DNA of 34,785 nucleotides, from contig CAZQPV010000001.1 of NCBI GenBank assembly GCA_964595265.1, forward strand, positions 4,632 to 39,416, read 5' to 3'. Below the pieces are notes generated by a model. It worked only from the letters and a program-made list of their open reading frames with translations. It made no database searches and was not told where the DNA came from. Position 1 is the stretch's first letter. Every line of letters begins with the position of its first letter. Positions 2,821-24,034 of this stretch are shown here, one piece after another. The position numbers and the translations under genes were made by a program. The stretch comes from an uncultured Fimbriimonadales bacterium (GTDB taxonomy: Bacteria > Armatimonadota > Fimbriimonadia > Fimbriimonadales > GBS-DC).

Positions 2821-5210
2821 AGCGCTATCTTTGCCTGCTCCGTTACAGAGGACGGTACAGTATCATCCCACTCCAGCGTCAGTTTGCGCACGCCTTCCCG
2901 CACGGCGCGGGCGCGACGCACCACCGCCAGCCAGCCGCCCAACAGCGTGAGCGGCGGACCCAGCCACACCAGTATTGTGAACGGCTTGTAGTAGACCTCC
3001 AGCGGAATCACCCAGCGCGGATTTGTCTCAGGCTTGCCTGGCACCATGATGAGCTGGAACTCCACCAGTCGGCGGCTGACATCCATCTGCCCCACCAGAA
3101 TCTGCGCTCCGTCAGGCAGGGGCACGGGAATGGGAATAATCCCACTCCGATCCATCAGACGGAACGGCGCCACCTCCACAGGCTCTTTCCAGCGGGGATG
3201 GCTCACCCGTGCGACCGCAATCGCCCGAAAACCTTCCTGACCCATCGCCCCAGCGGTTTCAAAACCCTTGAACTCTATCGTGTAGTCCCCTACCTTGCCC
3301 TTCTCTTTCTCGTGCAAGCGCAAGGTCAGGGGGTCGGCGCTCACCTGAGGCGGCGCAAAAAACGACACATACAGGTCATGGTCCCACCAGCGCACGATGT
3401 GGGGCCAGACCACATTGCTCACTTCCCCGCCACGCTGAAACTGGTAGAAGCGCGGTTCCACCACAAACTTCGTTTCGTGCGAGGCGACCTCAAGTCGCAC
3501 GCGGTTGAACTTATCGCGCATCGGGTCGCCCGGAAACTTTTCGTTGCCTGTCATGCCCAGATAGCGCCATCGGTAGCCGAACGCAATCGTGTCCCTCCCC
3601 TGCTCCACAATCACCTGCTGTTTCACTTCGTAAGCATAGGAGAGGATCAGCCCGATTAAACCCACCGCCAGCCCGAAGTGGGTCAGGAATCCGCCCATCG
3701 AGTAGCGCGCGTTCCACAAGCCTGCCAGCGCCTGTCCGTAGGCGGCGGGGCGAAGCCACGCCTGCCAGCCCTTCCCCTTCCCGACCTGCGCCCGACGCCA
3801 GATGGCGCCCAGATTCGCGAACGCCACAAACGATAGCAGCACCACGATAAACAGCGTCAGCGGCTCGCGAAAACCATACCAGAACGCCGCGAACCCCACC
3901 AGCACTGCCAGCACCCAGCTTTTGGTGAGACGCTCCAGAATCTGATCCAGCGTCATGCCGCGCCAGCCGAGCATTGGCGCTGCCGCCGCCACAATCGCCG
4001 TGAGAATAATCCACGGGATATGCACCCGATTATAAAAGTCGGGCTTGAGCGCCGCCGCCTGACCATGAAACAGTTTCGCAATCAGCGGCCACGAAGTGCC
4101 CACAAGGCTGATTAGCGCCGAGATACTCAGGAGCGCAATCCCCCACCGCAAAGCCGCTTCACGCGAGAAGCCCTTCGTCGTATCCGATGCGGGTAGCGGC
4201 ATCTGCCGATACCGATAAAGCCAAAGCCCCAGCGTTACCAGAAGTCCTCCCGCCATCAGCGCGACCAGGATGCCCAGCGCGCTCTTGGCTAAGGCGTCAA
4301 ACGAGTGAACCGAGACCTCCGCCAGCACCCCACTGCGCGTTAGAAAAGTCCCGTACACGAACAGCAGGAACGGAATCGCCAGCAGCAGCGGGTTCCAGCG
4401 CACCATTCTGCCCCGATTTACCTGAAGCATGATGCCGTGAACTCCTGCTGCCATAAATAGCCACGGGAAGTAAGAAGTGTTCTCCACAGGGTCCCATGCC
4501 CAGAAGCCGCCCCAGCCGAGCGTCTCATACGCCCAGTAGCCGCCCAGCACCAGCCCGAAGCCAAGCATCGTGGTCGCATAAATCGCCCACGGGCGCACAC
4601 GAAGAACCCACTCATAATATTCGTTGCGCCAGAGTGCCGCCAGTGCGTACACGAACGGCACTGCCAGCGCAGAAAACCCTGCGAAGATAATCGGCGGGTG
4701 GATGGTCATCCAAATATTTTCCAGCGAGGGGTTCAAGCCGAAGCCGTCCTGCGGCGGCCAGACTTCAGGCGCGGGGTCAGGTTTGGGCAGCGGCGCAAAC
4801 GGGCTTTGATACGCCAGAATGCCCAGCAGCGCCAGCACCAGCCCCGAACAGAGGGTCATCACCCAGCGTTCGTAGCCCCCTGCTGTGCGCATTAGCACCA
4901 GCCCATAAATGCCCGTCCAGATAGCCCACAGCAGGAAGCTTCCCTCCTGCCCCGCCCACGCGCCTGCAATCTTGTACCACAGGTGCAGACTCCGCTCGCT
5001 GAAGCTGAACACATACTGCAGGTCGTAACGCCCCGTAATCAGCGCGTACTGCAGTACCGCCTCCGTGGCGAGAATCATCAAAAACGCGCCCCAGAACAGC
5101 CCCCTACCCCAGCGCATTAGGTGGGGGTAGCGCCCGCTGAGCGCATACGCCATCACCGCCCCCAGCGCAAACGCGCACCCCAGCCAGACCACCAGATAGC
5201 CCAGTAGCAT
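2817..5210 (-). CDS. ccmF: Cytochrome c-type biogenesis heme lyase subunit CcmF (System I)
   Basis: A polytopic membrane protein with the WWD heme-handling motif (WGGFWAWDPVENTSYFPWL) and a long C-terminal CcmF_C-like region. It lies directly downstream of ccmE with a 4-nt gap. Confidence 0.9.
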   Translation of the reverse strand: MLLGYLVVWLGCAFALGAVMAYALSGRYPHLMRWGRGLFWGAFLMILATEAVLQYALITGRYDLQYVFSFSERSLHLWYKIAGAWAGQEGSFLLWAIWTGIYGLVLMRTAGGYERWVMTLCSGLVLALLGILAYQSPFAPLPKPDPAPEVWPPQDGFGLNPSLENIWMTIHPPIIFAGFSALAVPFVYALAALWRNEYYEWVLRVRPWAIYATTMLGFGLVLGGYWAYETLGWGGFWAWDPVENTSYFPWLFMAAGVHGIMLQVNRGRMVRWNPLLLAIPFLLFVYGTFLTRSGVLAEVSVHSFDALAKSALGILVALMAGGLLVTLGLWLYRYRQMPLPASDTTKGFSREAALRWGIALLSISALISLVGTSWPLIAKLFHGQAAALKPDFYNRVHIPWIILTAIVAAAAPMLGWRGMTLDQILERLTKSWVLAVLVGFAAFWYGFREPLTLFIVVLLSFVAFANLGAIWRRAQVGKGKGWQAWLRPAAYGQALAGLWNARYSMGGFLTHFGLAVGLIGLILSYAYEVKQQVIVEQGRDTIAFGYRWRYLGMTGNEKFPGDPMRDKFNRVRLEVASHETKFVVEPRFYQFQRGGEVSNVVWPHIVRWWDHDLYVSFFAPPQVSADPLTLRLHEKEKGKVGDYTIEFKGFETAGAMGQEGFRAIAVARVSHPRWKEPVEVAPFRLMDRSGIIPIPVPLPDGAQILVGQMDVSRRLVEFQLIMVPGKPETNPRWVIPLEVYYKPFTILVWLGPPLTLLGGWLAVVRRARAVREGVRKLTLEWDDTVPSSVTEQAKIAL

Positions 5211-19687: not shown

Positions 19688-20026
19688 GCCTATGTTCTCG
19701 TTATCCCATTGTTCGGCGAACTGGCGGATGGTGTGTAGCAATTCCGCCAGCCGCTCGCCGCGCGGGGTAAACCGATACTCCACATGCGGCGGGATCGTAG
19801 GATACGCAATTCGCTGGAGGATGCCGTATCGCTCCAGTTTGCGCACGCGCTCCTGAAGCACTTTGGGGGTTAGCCCTGGCAGGGCGCGCTCCAGCTGACC
19901 GGGGCGGCAAATCCCCCTTGAGATGGCGTCCAGTATCTCCAGCGTCCACTTGCACTTGAGAATGTCGGTCAGGCACGCATAGACTTCGGCGTGGGGATAG
20001 CCTTCCATTTCACGCACAATTTTCAT
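19667..20026 (-). CDS. HxlR-family winged-helix transcriptional regulator
   Basis: It shows the typical HxlR pattern (KWTLEILDAI..G..RPGQLERALPGLTPKVLQERVRKLERYGIL.R...P..PPHVEY.FT.RG). Its start overlaps the recN stop (ATGA), and its 3' end overlaps serS by 21 nt. Confidence 0.85.
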   Translation of the reverse strand: MKIVREMEGYPHAEVYACLTDILKCKWTLEILDAISRGICRPGQLERALPGLTPKVLQERVRKLERYGILQRIAYPTIPPHVEYRFTPRGERLAELLHTIRQFAEQWDNENIGSGTNHL

Positions 20027-21687
20027 AACGGAACCTCCTCGGCTTGTTTTTGCAGAAGTTCGCGGGCGTGTTGCAGGGCGGTCTCGGTGGCTTCCCCTGC
20101 GAGCATGCGGGCGATTTCCGCCACGCGCGCCTCGCCTGCGAGCGGGGTTATCGCGACGCGGGTGCGCTCGCCTTCCACAAACTTTTCAATTAGGAAGTGC
20201 GTGCCCGCGCGGCTGGCAATCTGCGGCAGGTGCGTGATGCAGAGAATCTGGAAATGCTCCGCCAGATGCGCCAGCTTCTCGCCGACATAGTACGCTGTGC
20301 GCCCGCCCAAGCCCGCATCAATCTCGTCGAACACCAGCGTCGGCACGGGCGAGGCGTCCGCCAGCACGGCTTTGAGCGCGAGCATCACGCGCGACATCTC
20401 GCCCCCGGAGGCAATTTTGTTGAGCGGGCGCGGCGGCTCGCCCGGATTGGCGGAAAACAAAAACTCTATTGCGTCTACCCCCGAAGAGTCCATCGGTTTG
20501 GGGGTGATGGCGACTTCGAACAGGGCGCGTTCCATCGCCAGCTCGCGCAGATGCCCCTGCACAGCCTGAGCGAAGCGTTCTGCCCCTGCACGGCGCAGTT
20601 CCGAAAGTTGCGCACAGAGCTGCTCTGCCTCCGCCTGCGCCTGTGTTAGTTCCTGCTCAACCACCTCGCGCCGCTCAGACTGATGCTCCAGCGCCTGCAG
20701 TTTCTGTTCCGCCTCGGTGGCGTATGCCAGAATTGCCTCAATCGTGTCGCCATACTTGCGCTTGAGGCGCTTGATGAGTTCCAGCCTTGCAATCACCTGC
20801 TCCAGCCGTTCGGGGTCGTATTCCACCGTTTCCGTATACTGGCGCAGAGTGTGGGCGACTTCTTCCAGCAGGGCGAGCGCGCTCTCCAGCTGCTCTTGAG
20901 CGGCGCTCATACTGGGGTCAATCCGGCAGATTTCGGTGAGGTTGCGGCTGGCGGAGGCGGCGAGGTCATACGCGCTCCCCTCGCCCATCAGCCACTCGTA
21001 GGCGGCACCCGCCAGCGACAGCAGACGCTCGGCGTGCGTCAGGCGTCGTTCTTCCGTGAGCAGATGCTCCTCTTCGTCGGGGGTCAACTCGGCGGCGCGA
21101 ATCTCCTCCACCTGAAAGCGATACAAGTCCAGCATTTGCTCGCGCTCGCGTTCGCGGGCAATCAGTTCTTGCAGCTCGTTTTGCAGGCTTCGGAACCTTT
21201 GTACGGCGTCCCGCACGCGCACCCGCAGTTGCAACGCCGGCTCCCCCAGCCAGCGATCCAGTAGCTCCAGATGCTGGCTGGGCTTGAGCAGCGACTGGTG
21301 TTCGTGCTGACCGTGCAGGTCTACGAGCCGTTCACCCAGCGCTTTGAGCGTACCCAGCGGCACGGGTTGCCCGTTCACCCGAGCCAGCGAGCGCCCCCCC
21401 GCCTGCACCTCGCGATAAAGATAGAGCGCGCCGTCCTCCAGCTCAATCCCCAGGTCAGCGAGTTCTAATGAAGGCGACGGCAGGAAGACGGCGCTGACCT
21501 TGAGGCGGTCGGCGCCTGCGCGGATTAGCGTCGGGTCAGCGCGGTCGCCCAGCACCAGCCCCAGCGCGTCCAGCAGAATCGACTTCCCCGCCCCCGTCTC
21601 ACCCGTTAACACATTCAAGCCGGGCTGGAAATCCACCTCCAGCCTGTCAATAATCGCCAGGTTCTCCACATACAGGCTCTGGAGCAT
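20023..21687 (-). CDS. recN: DNA repair protein RecN (SMC-like ATPase)
   Basis: It has an N-terminal Walker A (LTGETGAGKS), a long coiled-coil, a signature-like ASGGEMSR and Walker B LVFDEIDAGLGG. Confidence 0.93.
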   Translation of the reverse strand: MLQSLYVENLAIIDRLEVDFQPGLNVLTGETGAGKSILLDALGLVLGDRADPTLIRAGADRLKVSAVFLPSPSLELADLGIELEDGALYLYREVQAGGRSLARVNGQPVPLGTLKALGERLVDLHGQHEHQSLLKPSQHLELLDRWLGEPALQLRVRVRDAVQRFRSLQNELQELIAREREREQMLDLYRFQVEEIRAAELTPDEEEHLLTEERRLTHAERLLSLAGAAYEWLMGEGSAYDLAASASRNLTEICRIDPSMSAAQEQLESALALLEEVAHTLRQYTETVEYDPERLEQVIARLELIKRLKRKYGDTIEAILAYATEAEQKLQALEHQSERREVVEQELTQAQAEAEQLCAQLSELRRAGAERFAQAVQGHLRELAMERALFEVAITPKPMDSSGVDAIEFLFSANPGEPPRPLNKIASGGEMSRVMLALKAVLADASPVPTLVFDEIDAGLGGRTAYYVGEKLAHLAEHFQILCITHLPQIASRAGTHFLIEKFVEGERTRVAITPLAGEARVAEIARMLAGEATETALQHARELLQKQAEEVPL

Positions 21688-21775: not shown

Positions 21776-22396
21776 TCAGCGAAGTTTGTCTATGGCAAAG
21801 CCCACACTCCTAACTCCCGGGGTTCTAAGTTGACCTTCCCATATCTCTATGTTCATTATCACCTTCCAACCGTTCAACTCGAAGGTAAGATATGCATTGG
21901 GTATCATTTCATACATCACCTGTGCGCCAGCAGGAAGACCTGTCTGCGGGAAGGGTTGCTCCATCGTCTCAAAAAGATGCTTCATCGATGCGAGCAGCTC
22001 AAGGGCTTTCCCCTGAGCATCGTGTGGAAGTGAGTTGTACGCGAGCCACTGTCCGAGTCTCGGTCCATTCCATCGTTTTCCTAACTCCTCTATTGCTCGC
22101 GCAAGCCACTTTGCATATGCTTTTTCAGCCTCCTGAGTTAGCTTTTTGAAAATTTCTGACACGACTTTCATAATCTCATCGCGCTGCTCACTGGGAACCC
22201 CGCAAGAGAAGAGGAAGCTTATCTCCTCTGGGCGCGATTTGTCTCTGGATGGGCGAGACTTCGTTGTAGGCGACCGATTCGCAGGTTGCTCCGAACTTTG
22301 AGGGTAGGGTATTACGCTTACCACTTTTTGGGGATTGCCCCCCACTCCGGGGATGTCGTATGTAAGCCATACTTTACCGGCTAAATCAACGCGCAC
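21776..22396 (-). CDS. Hypothetical protein (206 aa from a GTG start; start uncertain), last gene of the AT-richer sigma operon
   Basis: The ORF has no family I recognise and no signal peptide, but it has a Pro/Ser-rich linker. It is co-oriented and closely spaced with the upstream genes. Confidence 0.4.
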   Translation of the reverse strand: MRVDLAGKVWLTYDIPGVGGNPQKVVSVIPYPQSSEQPANRSPTTKSRPSRDKSRPEEISFLFSCGVPSEQRDEIMKVVSEIFKKLTQEAEKAYAKWLARAIEELGKRWNGPRLGQWLAYNSLPHDAQGKALELLASMKHLFETMEQPFPQTGLPAGAQVMYEMIPNAYLTFELNGWKVIMNIEIWEGQLRTPGVRSVGFAIDKLR

Positions 22397-22453
22397 GAGA
22401 CCCTGCTGGAGAGCATCCTCAAAAGGTGTCTCCAGAACGCCACTCAGATACGC

Positions 22454-22939
22454 TCATGCGATCGCATTATAATGAGAACTCGGGTAAAGCACCGTATTCA
22501 CCCACTCTGCGACGAGGGAGCGTGCTGCATCGTTTTTGGAAAGGTCAAGGGAGCCGTTGCTCTGAAGGAGCATCTCCAGCAGCTCTGCCTCAAGACGTGC
22601 TCGCCCTTCTCCAACGCGCTTCGCTCCTGGTAGCAATAGGATTATCGTGCCCTCCCCTGCAAGCGAGCCCGACTCTATGTGCCATCCCCTCACTTCGGCT
22701 AGAGATAGCAATCCATCTCTGTCCCCCTGCTCAGCAACTGAAATAGCTGTAAGGGCATCTTCTCGCTCCTCAGGAACCGACACAACAACGCACGGGACGG
22801 CGATAGGTACGGACTCCGGCAGTGCCAGGCTCTTGTCCTGAGCGACTGCCAGCACATCCCCGAAAAGAGTGACCAGTATACCCAGCGCACATCGTAGATA
22901 AGCTCTCATGGTCTTACGATACAAGTTGTACCTGAACAT
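22454..22939 (-). CDS. Hypothetical secreted or membrane-anchored protein (161 aa)
   Basis: I chose the start at ATG 22939 because GGAGGG lies 3 nt upstream. The N-terminus MFRYNLYRKTMRAYLRCALGILVTLFGDVLAVAQD resembles a signal peptide. No recognisable family. Confidence 0.45.
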   Translation of the reverse strand: MFRYNLYRKTMRAYLRCALGILVTLFGDVLAVAQDKSLALPESVPIAVPCVVVSVPEEREDALTAISVAEQGDRDGLLSLAEVRGWHIESGSLAGEGTIILLLPGAKRVGEGRARLEAELLEMLLQSNGSLDLSKNDAARSLVAEWVNTVLYPSSHYNAIA

Positions 22940-22961
22940 GTTCCCTCCAGTATCTTGACTA

Positions 22962-23282
22962 CTATGCTTTCTCCCGCATTCCCGCATCTGGTGCCACCTG
23001 CACACATTGACATCTGTAAATCAATACCTTGTAGAGGCAACAGAGTCCACCAACTTGTGAGCACCCATCTCTCAAGCCTGCTGGAAACAACTCTCGAGAG
23101 CAGGCAACAGGGCAGATGTTACGCTGAGAGCAAAGCCATCTTTCTCCCTCGCAAATAGGCTGCGGTACAAGAATCTGCCCAGGAAGACTGGAGCTTACAC
23201 TTGCGCCTTCCTGTGCCATTGCATTTGCTACTACGAAAGCCATCGCAAATATAACCACCAATCTCAGTCCTGTGCGTAGCAT
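22962..23282 (-). CDS. Small Cys-rich secreted protein (106 aa; 9 Cys in an ~83-aa mature part)
   Basis: It has a signal-peptide-like N-terminus (MLRTGLRLVVIFAMAFVVANAMA|QEG). A strong Shine-Dalgarno (GGAGGTGA) lies 6 nt upstream of the ATG. Cysteines are spread through the mature region, including a CC pair. Confidence 0.5.
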   Translation of the reverse strand: MLRTGLRLVVIFAMAFVVANAMAQEGASVSSSLPGQILVPQPICEGERWLCSQRNICPVACSRELFPAGLRDGCSQVGGLCCLYKVLIYRCQCVQVAPDAGMREKA

Positions 23283-23350
23283 TTTTTGTCACCTCCGCAC
23301 TTAAAAATAGTCACCTCTTCCAGAGCGGCCACGTTTTTGTACTCCCTGAG

Positions 23351-24034
23351 TCACCTCTCACCCAACAACTCTCGCAGACGCGCCAGTGCCAACGCGCGTT
23401 GCTTGTTCACCCAAGCACAACTCATACTCAGCCGCTGCGCAATTTCGCGCTCTCCCAAGCCCTCTCCATAGATCCATTCCAGGATTTGACGCTGGACATT
23501 CGGCAACCTCTCAAGCGCTTCCCTCACCGCGCCGCAAAGCACTGCCTCTTCAACCGCCTCTTGTGCCCCCGGGTCCTCAAACTCCGCTTCTTCTCCTGTC
23601 TCTTCGTTTACGGGCATCTCCGCCACACATGCCCAGTGTCGTCTCAGGCGTTTCCACTCATCAAGGATTGCCCACACAGCACGCTGGTAAGCAAATGCCT
23701 CCAGAGGAACGCCTCGCTCGGGCTGGTAGTCGTGGAATGCTTGCCATACTGCAAGATGGGCGAGAGCAATCCGCTCCTCACGCCAGTAGTCCGCGTCGTA
23801 ATGCGGAGGTGGTGGAAGGCGGTTAGTTGAGGCAATAGCACGCTGGGCAGCGTGTTGGAGAGACGCTGGGAGTAAGGCGGGCAGGGTGTCGTAGTTACTG
23901 TCTCCCACGGGGCTCACCCCCCCCCGCAACACGGTGGAAGAGCGCAAGGGCACTCCCCCCAACATCCCGAATTGCGGCGTCTGAACCAGTACCGCCATAA
24001 GCATCGCTGCCCTCCCACTGAAAAGGATTCTCAT
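23351..24034 (-). CDS. Sigma-70 family RNA polymerase sigma factor (group 4/ECF-like) with an atypical N-terminal ~85 aa; true start uncertain
   Basis: The region-2-like block is IALAHLAVWQAFHDYQPERGVPLEAFAYQRAVWAILDEWKR. The region-4 HTH block is LPNVQRQILEWIYGEGLGEREIAQRLSMSCAWVNKQRALALARLREL. Confidence 0.7.
   Translation of the reverse strand: MRILFSGRAAMLMAVLVQTPQFGMLGGVPLRSSTVLRGGVSPVGDSNYDTLPALLPASLQHAAQRAIASTNRLPPPPHYDADYWREERIALAHLAVWQAFHDYQPERGVPLEAFAYQRAVWAILDEWKRLRRHWACVAEMPVNEETGEEAEFEDPGAQEAVEEAVLCGAVREALERLPNVQRQILEWIYGEGLGEREIAQRLSMSCAWVNKQRALALARLRELLGER

Follow-up and report, generated by a model that had tools for sequence, protein, structure and literature searches.

The locus considered here lies in a 34,785-nucleotide stretch of DNA (hereafter, the window) from contig CAZQPV010000001.1 (forward-strand positions 4,632 to 39,416; assembly GCA_964595265.1) of an uncultured Fimbriimonadales bacterium. 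The source is a hot-spring organism, and its genome is a metagenome-assembled genome (MAG) of 240 contigs and 88% completeness. Four open reading frames (ORFs) lie between recN (20023-21687) and a region of toxin-antitoxin genes and miaA duplication, all on the minus strand (Table 1), as the first-pass annotation had described: a sigma-factor ORF, a Cys-rich ORF, ORF3, and ORF4. That annotation took them to be a four-gene operon; however, ORF3 and ORF4 together make up one gene, here called gene A, with an in-frame TGA, and the Cys-rich ORF is a frameshifted truncation. With a probability of roughly 0.8, we judge this to be a decaying accessory locus, composed of an intact, lineage-specific sigma gene of the extracytoplasmic function (ECF)-like type and a two-gene cassette, both genes of which have apparently been inactivated.

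Table 1. Features of the recN-miaA interval in the window.
Feature	Position	Strand	Remarks
Sigma ORF; ECF-like sigma-70-family gene of a lineage-specific clade, intact	23351-24034	-	227 aa as the longest ORF; assigned from Pfam, TIGR02937, and homologues
Cys-rich ORF; 5' part of the Cys-rich gene, original frame to a premature TAG	22962-23282	-	106 aa; signal peptide, 9 Cys; aligns to ...YRCQC, then diverges
(TG)3 run, frame switch in the Cys-rich gene	23001-23006	-	Frame A matches homologues upstream, frame B downstream
Out-of-frame 3' remnant of the Cys-rich gene	22906-23004	-	GTRCGNAGESIVV..EGTCSG..TCIVRP
Gene A; ~387-aa putative secreted protein with an in-frame TGA inside	21776-22939	-	Read-through aligns with intact homologues
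ORF3	22454-22939	-	161 aa, counted from an ATG with a good GGAGGGA box
Premature TGA in gene A	22454-22456	-	CGA in both sister-species MAGs
ORF4	21776-22396	-	206 aa; GTG start

Gene A

The stop codon of ORF3 is in frame with ORF4, and reading through it yields 387 aa (21779-22939), with ORF3 as the N-terminal half, including the signal peptide, and ORF4 as the C-terminal half. In G004 and G009 ("bacterium HR15"), both of which belong to another genus of the same family, ORF3 and ORF4 match one and the same open frame of 443-447 aa. The read-through product can be aligned along its whole length with intact proteins of 355-389 aa, and its identity is 78% to P0002 (375 aa, from a Fimbriimonadales MAG), 45% to the G004 protein, and 35% to that of HR15. 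In the four closest homologues (alignment A1), the position taken by the TGA codon is an invariant Arg; the window reads GCA TGA GCG where both sister-species MAGs read GCA CGA GCG, i.e., a single C-to-T transition. The sister species is represented by two MAGs, L016 and G002, which are 98% identical and have the locus at the same position between recN and miaA. A non-standard code that reads TGA as sense was considered and rejected because conserved housekeeping genes end in TGA: among the true stops of this genome it is the most frequent, and it terminates 364 of 845 long ORFs, those of serS, recN, miaA, hfq, and gene A among them.

The first-pass annotation credited the ORFs with strong Shine-Dalgarno sites; ORF3 indeed has GGAGGGA, but ORF4 has no such site, the nearest GAGGA being 17 nt upstream of its GTG. 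Nor does ORF4 have a signal peptide. Both absences follow from the identity of ORF4 as the C-terminal portion of a protein that is exported. The AlphaFold2 model of A, built from a four-sequence alignment, has two domains that span both halves (mean predicted local distance difference test score, pLDDT, 76.8; predicted template modeling score, pTM, 0.71), and its N-terminal domain is continuous across the break. The Pro/Ser-rich stretch first taken for a linker corresponds to a loop between the domains that is variable and modeled with low confidence (model residues 216-237).

Between the window and L016, the ratio of nonsynonymous to synonymous substitution rates (dN/dS) is 0.27 for A (0.29 and 0.25 for its two halves) and 0.04 for recN. 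Gene A thus evolves fast and yet was constrained for most of the divergence, which makes the nonsense mutation a recent one. Because its premature stop stands where intact orthologues have a conserved sense codon, gene A of the window is in all likelihood a pseudogene.

Cys-rich gene

Intact homologues of the Cys-rich protein are 130-160 aa long, contain 12-13 Cys, and share the motif CSQxG..CC.Y...C...CGN..S....G.C; about six disulfides are probably present in the intact protein. The 106-aa product of the window, with its signal peptide and nine Cys as originally read from the sequence (the signal peptide of the 161-aa product likewise stands), is short of ~30 residues, including three of the conserved Cys. 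The out-of-frame remnant aligns with the conserved C-terminus of the intact homologues, CGNAG.S.V....G.C, and, read in the original frame, it would extend 34 nt into the next gene. The frame switch at the (TG)3 run fits either a gain of 2 nt or a loss of 1 nt and is compatible with dinucleotide slippage. Given this change of frame relative to intact homologues, the Cys-rich gene is probably also a pseudogene. The model of the Cys-rich domain (from the L040 protein) is all-beta, with pLDDT > 90 over residues 85-150.

The N-terminus of the HR15 Cys-rich protein is a separate matter. Its first ~45 residues (MMMRRGSLRWVRQVLAQKGTAKAFAVVL...; L015 5631-5765, minus strand) recur, at 70-90% identity, at the N-termini of numerous unrelated ORFs, 52-573 aa long, both in HR15 and in related genomes (G009 contigs C27, C17, C4, C6, C18, and C7; also G018, G022, and G014). 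It has the look of a lineage-specific leader or export signal common to these ORFs, or of a 5' cassette that recombines. In its place, the window copy has an ordinary short signal peptide.

Composition and genomic setting

The three downstream ORFs (21776-23282) have a GC content of 52.0%, compared with a genome mean of 60.4% (standard deviation 2.6; z = -3.2), and fall within the lowest 1% of 6998 genome windows of equal size. Their GC content at third codon positions is 0.45-0.55, versus 0.74-0.76 in recN and miaA. The AT-rich block first described by eye is therefore real for these three ORFs, but it does not extend to the sigma gene, whose 59.4% GC is unremarkable in this genome. The cassette is likewise GC-poorer than its flanks in all other hosts examined (47-55% vs 56-65%), and low GC is thus a property of the cassette gene family and not a sign of recent arrival in this genome. 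Recent horizontal transfer was also rejected as the cause because the synonymous divergence (dS) from L016 is similar for gene A (0.47) and recN (0.34), which argues for vertical descent since the window and the sister species split. Of the earlier suggestion that these genes are horizontally acquired cargo, the low GC and the position in a variable hot spot remain, but not a recent acquisition. A scan for promoters and terminators found nothing on the coding strand.

The state of the locus differs among close relatives. In the window, the Cys-rich gene is frameshifted, A has the TGA nonsense codon, the sigma gene is present, and the gap between gene A and recN is only 88 nt, with no gene B (described below). 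L016 has an intact A and a 373-aa secreted B; its Cys-rich gene is a 3' stump fused to an antitoxin-like repeat, and there is no sigma gene at the locus, which also contains toxin-antitoxin pairs, RHS C-terminal fragments, and an IS630-like remnant. G002 has the same Cys-rich stump, a frameshifted A, no sigma gene at the locus, and other content as in L016. In G001 and G003, of the same genus, the Cys-rich gene and A are both absent. When the window is compared with L016 and G002, the recN-miaA interval emerges as a variable hot spot of cassette swapping that collects accessory cassettes.

Several other elements occur around the cassette in these genomes. In two genera, it is adjoined by C-terminal fragments of the RHS type (...YDGHGNLV...RYYEPATGRFISEDP...), every one of which comes with a variable tail and a small membrane protein (L015 3058-3966 in HR15; L016 6708-7406 and 4825-5532; L013 7287-8246). 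In the sister species, PIN/AF2212-like toxin-antitoxin pairs and the IS630-like transposase remnant (L016 9167-9442) stand beside the RHS fragments. B is a second orphan secreted family of 350-375 aa (L016 9452-10573; L013, from G002, 3823-4950; L042 8480-9532); it lies beside A in a distant metagenome contig as well as in the sister species. In a profile-profile comparison, B and A are collinear over 250 columns (P = 8e-4, probability 24%), and B may be a distant paralogue of A.

Sigma-factor gene

That the first ORF encodes a sigma-70-family factor, as proposed at the outset, was borne out by matches above the cut-offs to Sigma70_r2 (PF04542, 26.7 bits vs a cut-off of 24, covering only profile positions 32-70), to two region 4 models (PF08281, Sigma70_r4_2, 39.5 bits vs 25.7; PF04545, 27.1 vs 24.1), and to TIGR02937 (53.7 bits vs 42.9). 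Pfam and NCBIfam scans gave no match to region 1.1 or region 3, and no NCBIfam subfamily or equivalog model reached its cut-off. The probable start is the ATG at 24004 (Met11, giving 217 aa), which has GGGAGGG at 24016-24010, 5 nt before it; gene callers on independent contigs also begin the gene there. Of the N-terminus of ~85 aa noted earlier as non-canonical, the first ~45-55 residues of the 227-aa ORF are not conserved among homologues, but from about residue 55 there is a clade-specific segment, LQ.AV.RA...PPP.YD..YWREE, which replaces the canonical region 2.1.

Homologues with 52-58% identity over residues ~47-227 occur at other loci of related genomes, where unrelated secreted proteins of 382 to >900 aa are encoded downstream of them. 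This suggests a clade of sigma factors that lack anti-sigma partners and are dedicated to individual secreted proteins. The paralogues at L022 (G002:C16), L027 (G011:C356), L049 (G004:C26), and L051 (G012:C26) each precede a different large secreted protein; these are two Cys-containing proteins (382 and 411 aa), the product of a 758-aa ORF, and a protein of >970 aa that resembles a beta-propeller.

Neither the downstream proteins nor their intact homologues contain an anti-sigma domain in Pfam or NCBIfam, and the hallmark of zinc-binding anti-sigma (ZAS) factors, HxxxCxxC followed by one transmembrane helix, is absent from the downstream proteins; indeed, the Cys-rich protein of the window has no His at all. 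As read from their sequences, the cassette proteins of the window have signal peptides of the cleavable type and not cytoplasmic N-terminal domains. Some Cys-rich homologues have a longer N-terminus ahead of the hydrophobic helix, but the Cys-rich protein was rejected as a membrane anti-sigma factor because both copies adjacent to a sigma gene have short signal peptides only.

Just upstream of the sigma gene, near position ~24156 and by the duplicated 5' segment of miaA, contigs L053 and L054 from two independent per-run assemblies end at an identical point. A repeat that assemblers could not cross would explain the shared break.

Distribution of the Cys-rich and A pair

Both families are extremely rare. 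The A-family profile found only eight proteins among 1.84 billion representative proteins, and a word-indexed search of 5.8 billion proteins gave one match for A and three for the Cys-rich family; a scan of 401 genomes from across the phylum detected A only in the genome of the window and in G004. The Cys-rich gene lies directly upstream of A, often overlapping it, in all seven loci with readable upstream sequence (the window, G004, HR15, L040, L041, L042, and L046), and this overlap suggests that the two are coupled in translation and function jointly.

A neighborhood conserved across genomes thus exists for the pair but is weak for the sigma gene. A sigma gene of the same clade adjoins the pair at only one other locus, L042, where the order (Cys-rich, A, sigma, a small secreted protein, B) differs from that of the window, and none stands beside the cassette in HR15 or L041. 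The linkage is thus seen in two of the four loci with readable flanks; contigs at the remaining loci are too short to be counted, that of G004 beginning at the Cys-rich gene itself. Linkage of sigma to the cassette is therefore suggestive and not established.

The earlier impression that the downstream proteins belong to no known family was upheld. Pfam, NCBIfam, and PADLOC scans returned nothing for the three ORFs, and Pfam and PADLOC nothing for the A family, other than chance-level CARF matches in PADLOC (E of 0.004 or worse). Foldseek found nothing at E < 0.1 for the A model in PDB or BFVD, nor for the Cys-rich model in PDB. The A profile gave a weak match among PDB sequences to a coiled region of the HtpG C-terminus (E = 0.0012), which was judged compositional and set aside. 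A search of the literature on the HR15 lineage turned up nothing about these genes. By sequence and model comparison, the Cys-rich protein and A constitute two undescribed orphan families.

Decay and its alternatives

The first-pass annotation raised the possibility of a self-contained module, but both cassette genes are broken here. The module is most likely non-functional in the window and on its way to loss, which fits its place in the recN-miaA hot spot. Four points weigh against this interpretation: a dN/dS of 0.27 for A would also fit a split gene that still functions; the intact sigma gene might serve other targets; the truncated products could conceivably retain a residual function; and the roles we assign to the cassette proteins have their export signals, Cys content, and gene coupling as the sole basis, with no homologue of known function.

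It is improbable that the four ORFs form a functional operon in which the 106-, 161-, and 206-aa products work with the sigma factor as an envelope or signalling module and the split in A is tolerated or is an adaptive fission. The ORFs do run in the same direction with close spacing, the sigma gene is intact, and both halves of A have a dN/dS of ~0.25-0.29 relative to the intact orthologue. However, a functional ORF4 would have to manage without a ribosome-binding site or signal peptide, though it is half of an exported protein, and the two products would divide a modeled domain that runs on across the break. All other members of the A family are single ORFs, and the loss of three conserved Cys would leave unpaired cysteines in a Cys-rich product.

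We think it very improbable that the lesions are MAG errors or minority variants and that the true organism has intact genes. A MAG as fragmented and incomplete as this one would lend itself to such errors, but separate contigs from SRR11582145, SRR11582147, and SRR11582148, produced by a different assembler, share the locus at 99.96-100% identity, and all three per-run assemblies carry both the TGA and the (TG)3 sequence, which argues that neither lesion is a MAG error. In addition, the flanking housekeeping genes are intact and equal in length to their orthologues, and neither lesion lies in a homopolymer. Each lesion, as a single event, could in principle be bypassed by recoding (read-through or selenocysteine at the TGA and a programmed frameshift in the Cys-rich gene), but this is barely credible, given that TGA is an ordinary stop here (the context at the break is TGA-G) and replaces Arg, not Cys or selenocysteine, in the closest homologues, that no slippery heptamer exists at (TG)3, and that no homologue requires such an event.

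Decay of a once-intact cassette thus remains our preferred explanation, and the relatives suggest what the intact state would be. Their Cys-rich and A genes abut or overlap and are probably translationally coupled. Both products are predicted to be exported by Sec signal peptides and most likely act jointly outside the cytoplasm, either forming a complex or pairing as cargo and partner. In some genomes, a dedicated sigma factor of this clade probably directs their transcription.

Comparison with known systems

The locus resembles ECF (group 4) operons, such as SigE-RseA and SigW-RsiW with their ZAS-type anti-sigma factors, in that the sigma factor is compact, with only sigma2 and sigma4, and heads a co-oriented cluster encoding putative extracytoplasmic proteins. 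It differs in having no zf-HC2, RskA, or other anti-sigma domain, and in the clade-specific N-terminal segment where region 2.1 normally stands. Furthermore, paralogues of this sigma factor adjoin unrelated secreted proteins, and the downstream pair usually has no sigma gene.

The likeness to unitary pseudogenes in accessory hot spots on bacterial chromosomes lies in two adjacent non-essential genes being hit, one by a nonsense mutation and the other by a frameshift, in the independent lesions or loss in sister lineages, and in the nearby toxin-antitoxin cassettes, RHS fragments, and transposase remnant; unlike in those cases, the affected genes here belong to two orphan families of no described function.

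Small, disulfide-rich, secreted bacterial proteins are encoded beside a partner gene in, for example, bacteriocin or effector loci with an adjacent accessory gene. By analogy, the intact pair may be compared with these: a small exported multi-Cys protein, a coupled second gene, a patchy distribution, and a GC content below that of the host. However, neither sequence nor fold comparison linked the pair to a family of this kind, and the partner A appears to be a large exported protein and not a small cytoplasmic or membrane immunity protein.

Significance

Without these comparisons, the locus would be annotated as four hypothetical genes; it more probably consists of one sigma gene and two pseudogenes. 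A bolder proposal, which we regard as doubtful, is that the intact pair would be an undescribed extracytoplasmic two-protein system of thermophilic Armatimonadota, driven by a clade of ECF-like sigma factors without anti-sigma partners, of which the window holds a recently inactivated copy. B may belong to the same set, and the system could be, e.g., a disulfide-stabilised secreted effector with its carrier, or a sensor pair.

The pair itself adds two orphan families, always found together and confidently modeled: an all-beta secreted domain with ~12 Cys and a two-domain secreted protein of ~360 aa. The intact copies in G004, bacterium HR15, and the metagenome contigs are the ones worth study. 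The sigma factor represents an unusual clade, lineage-specific and ECF-like, which appears to have no anti-sigma partner and to stand ahead of diverse secreted proteins.

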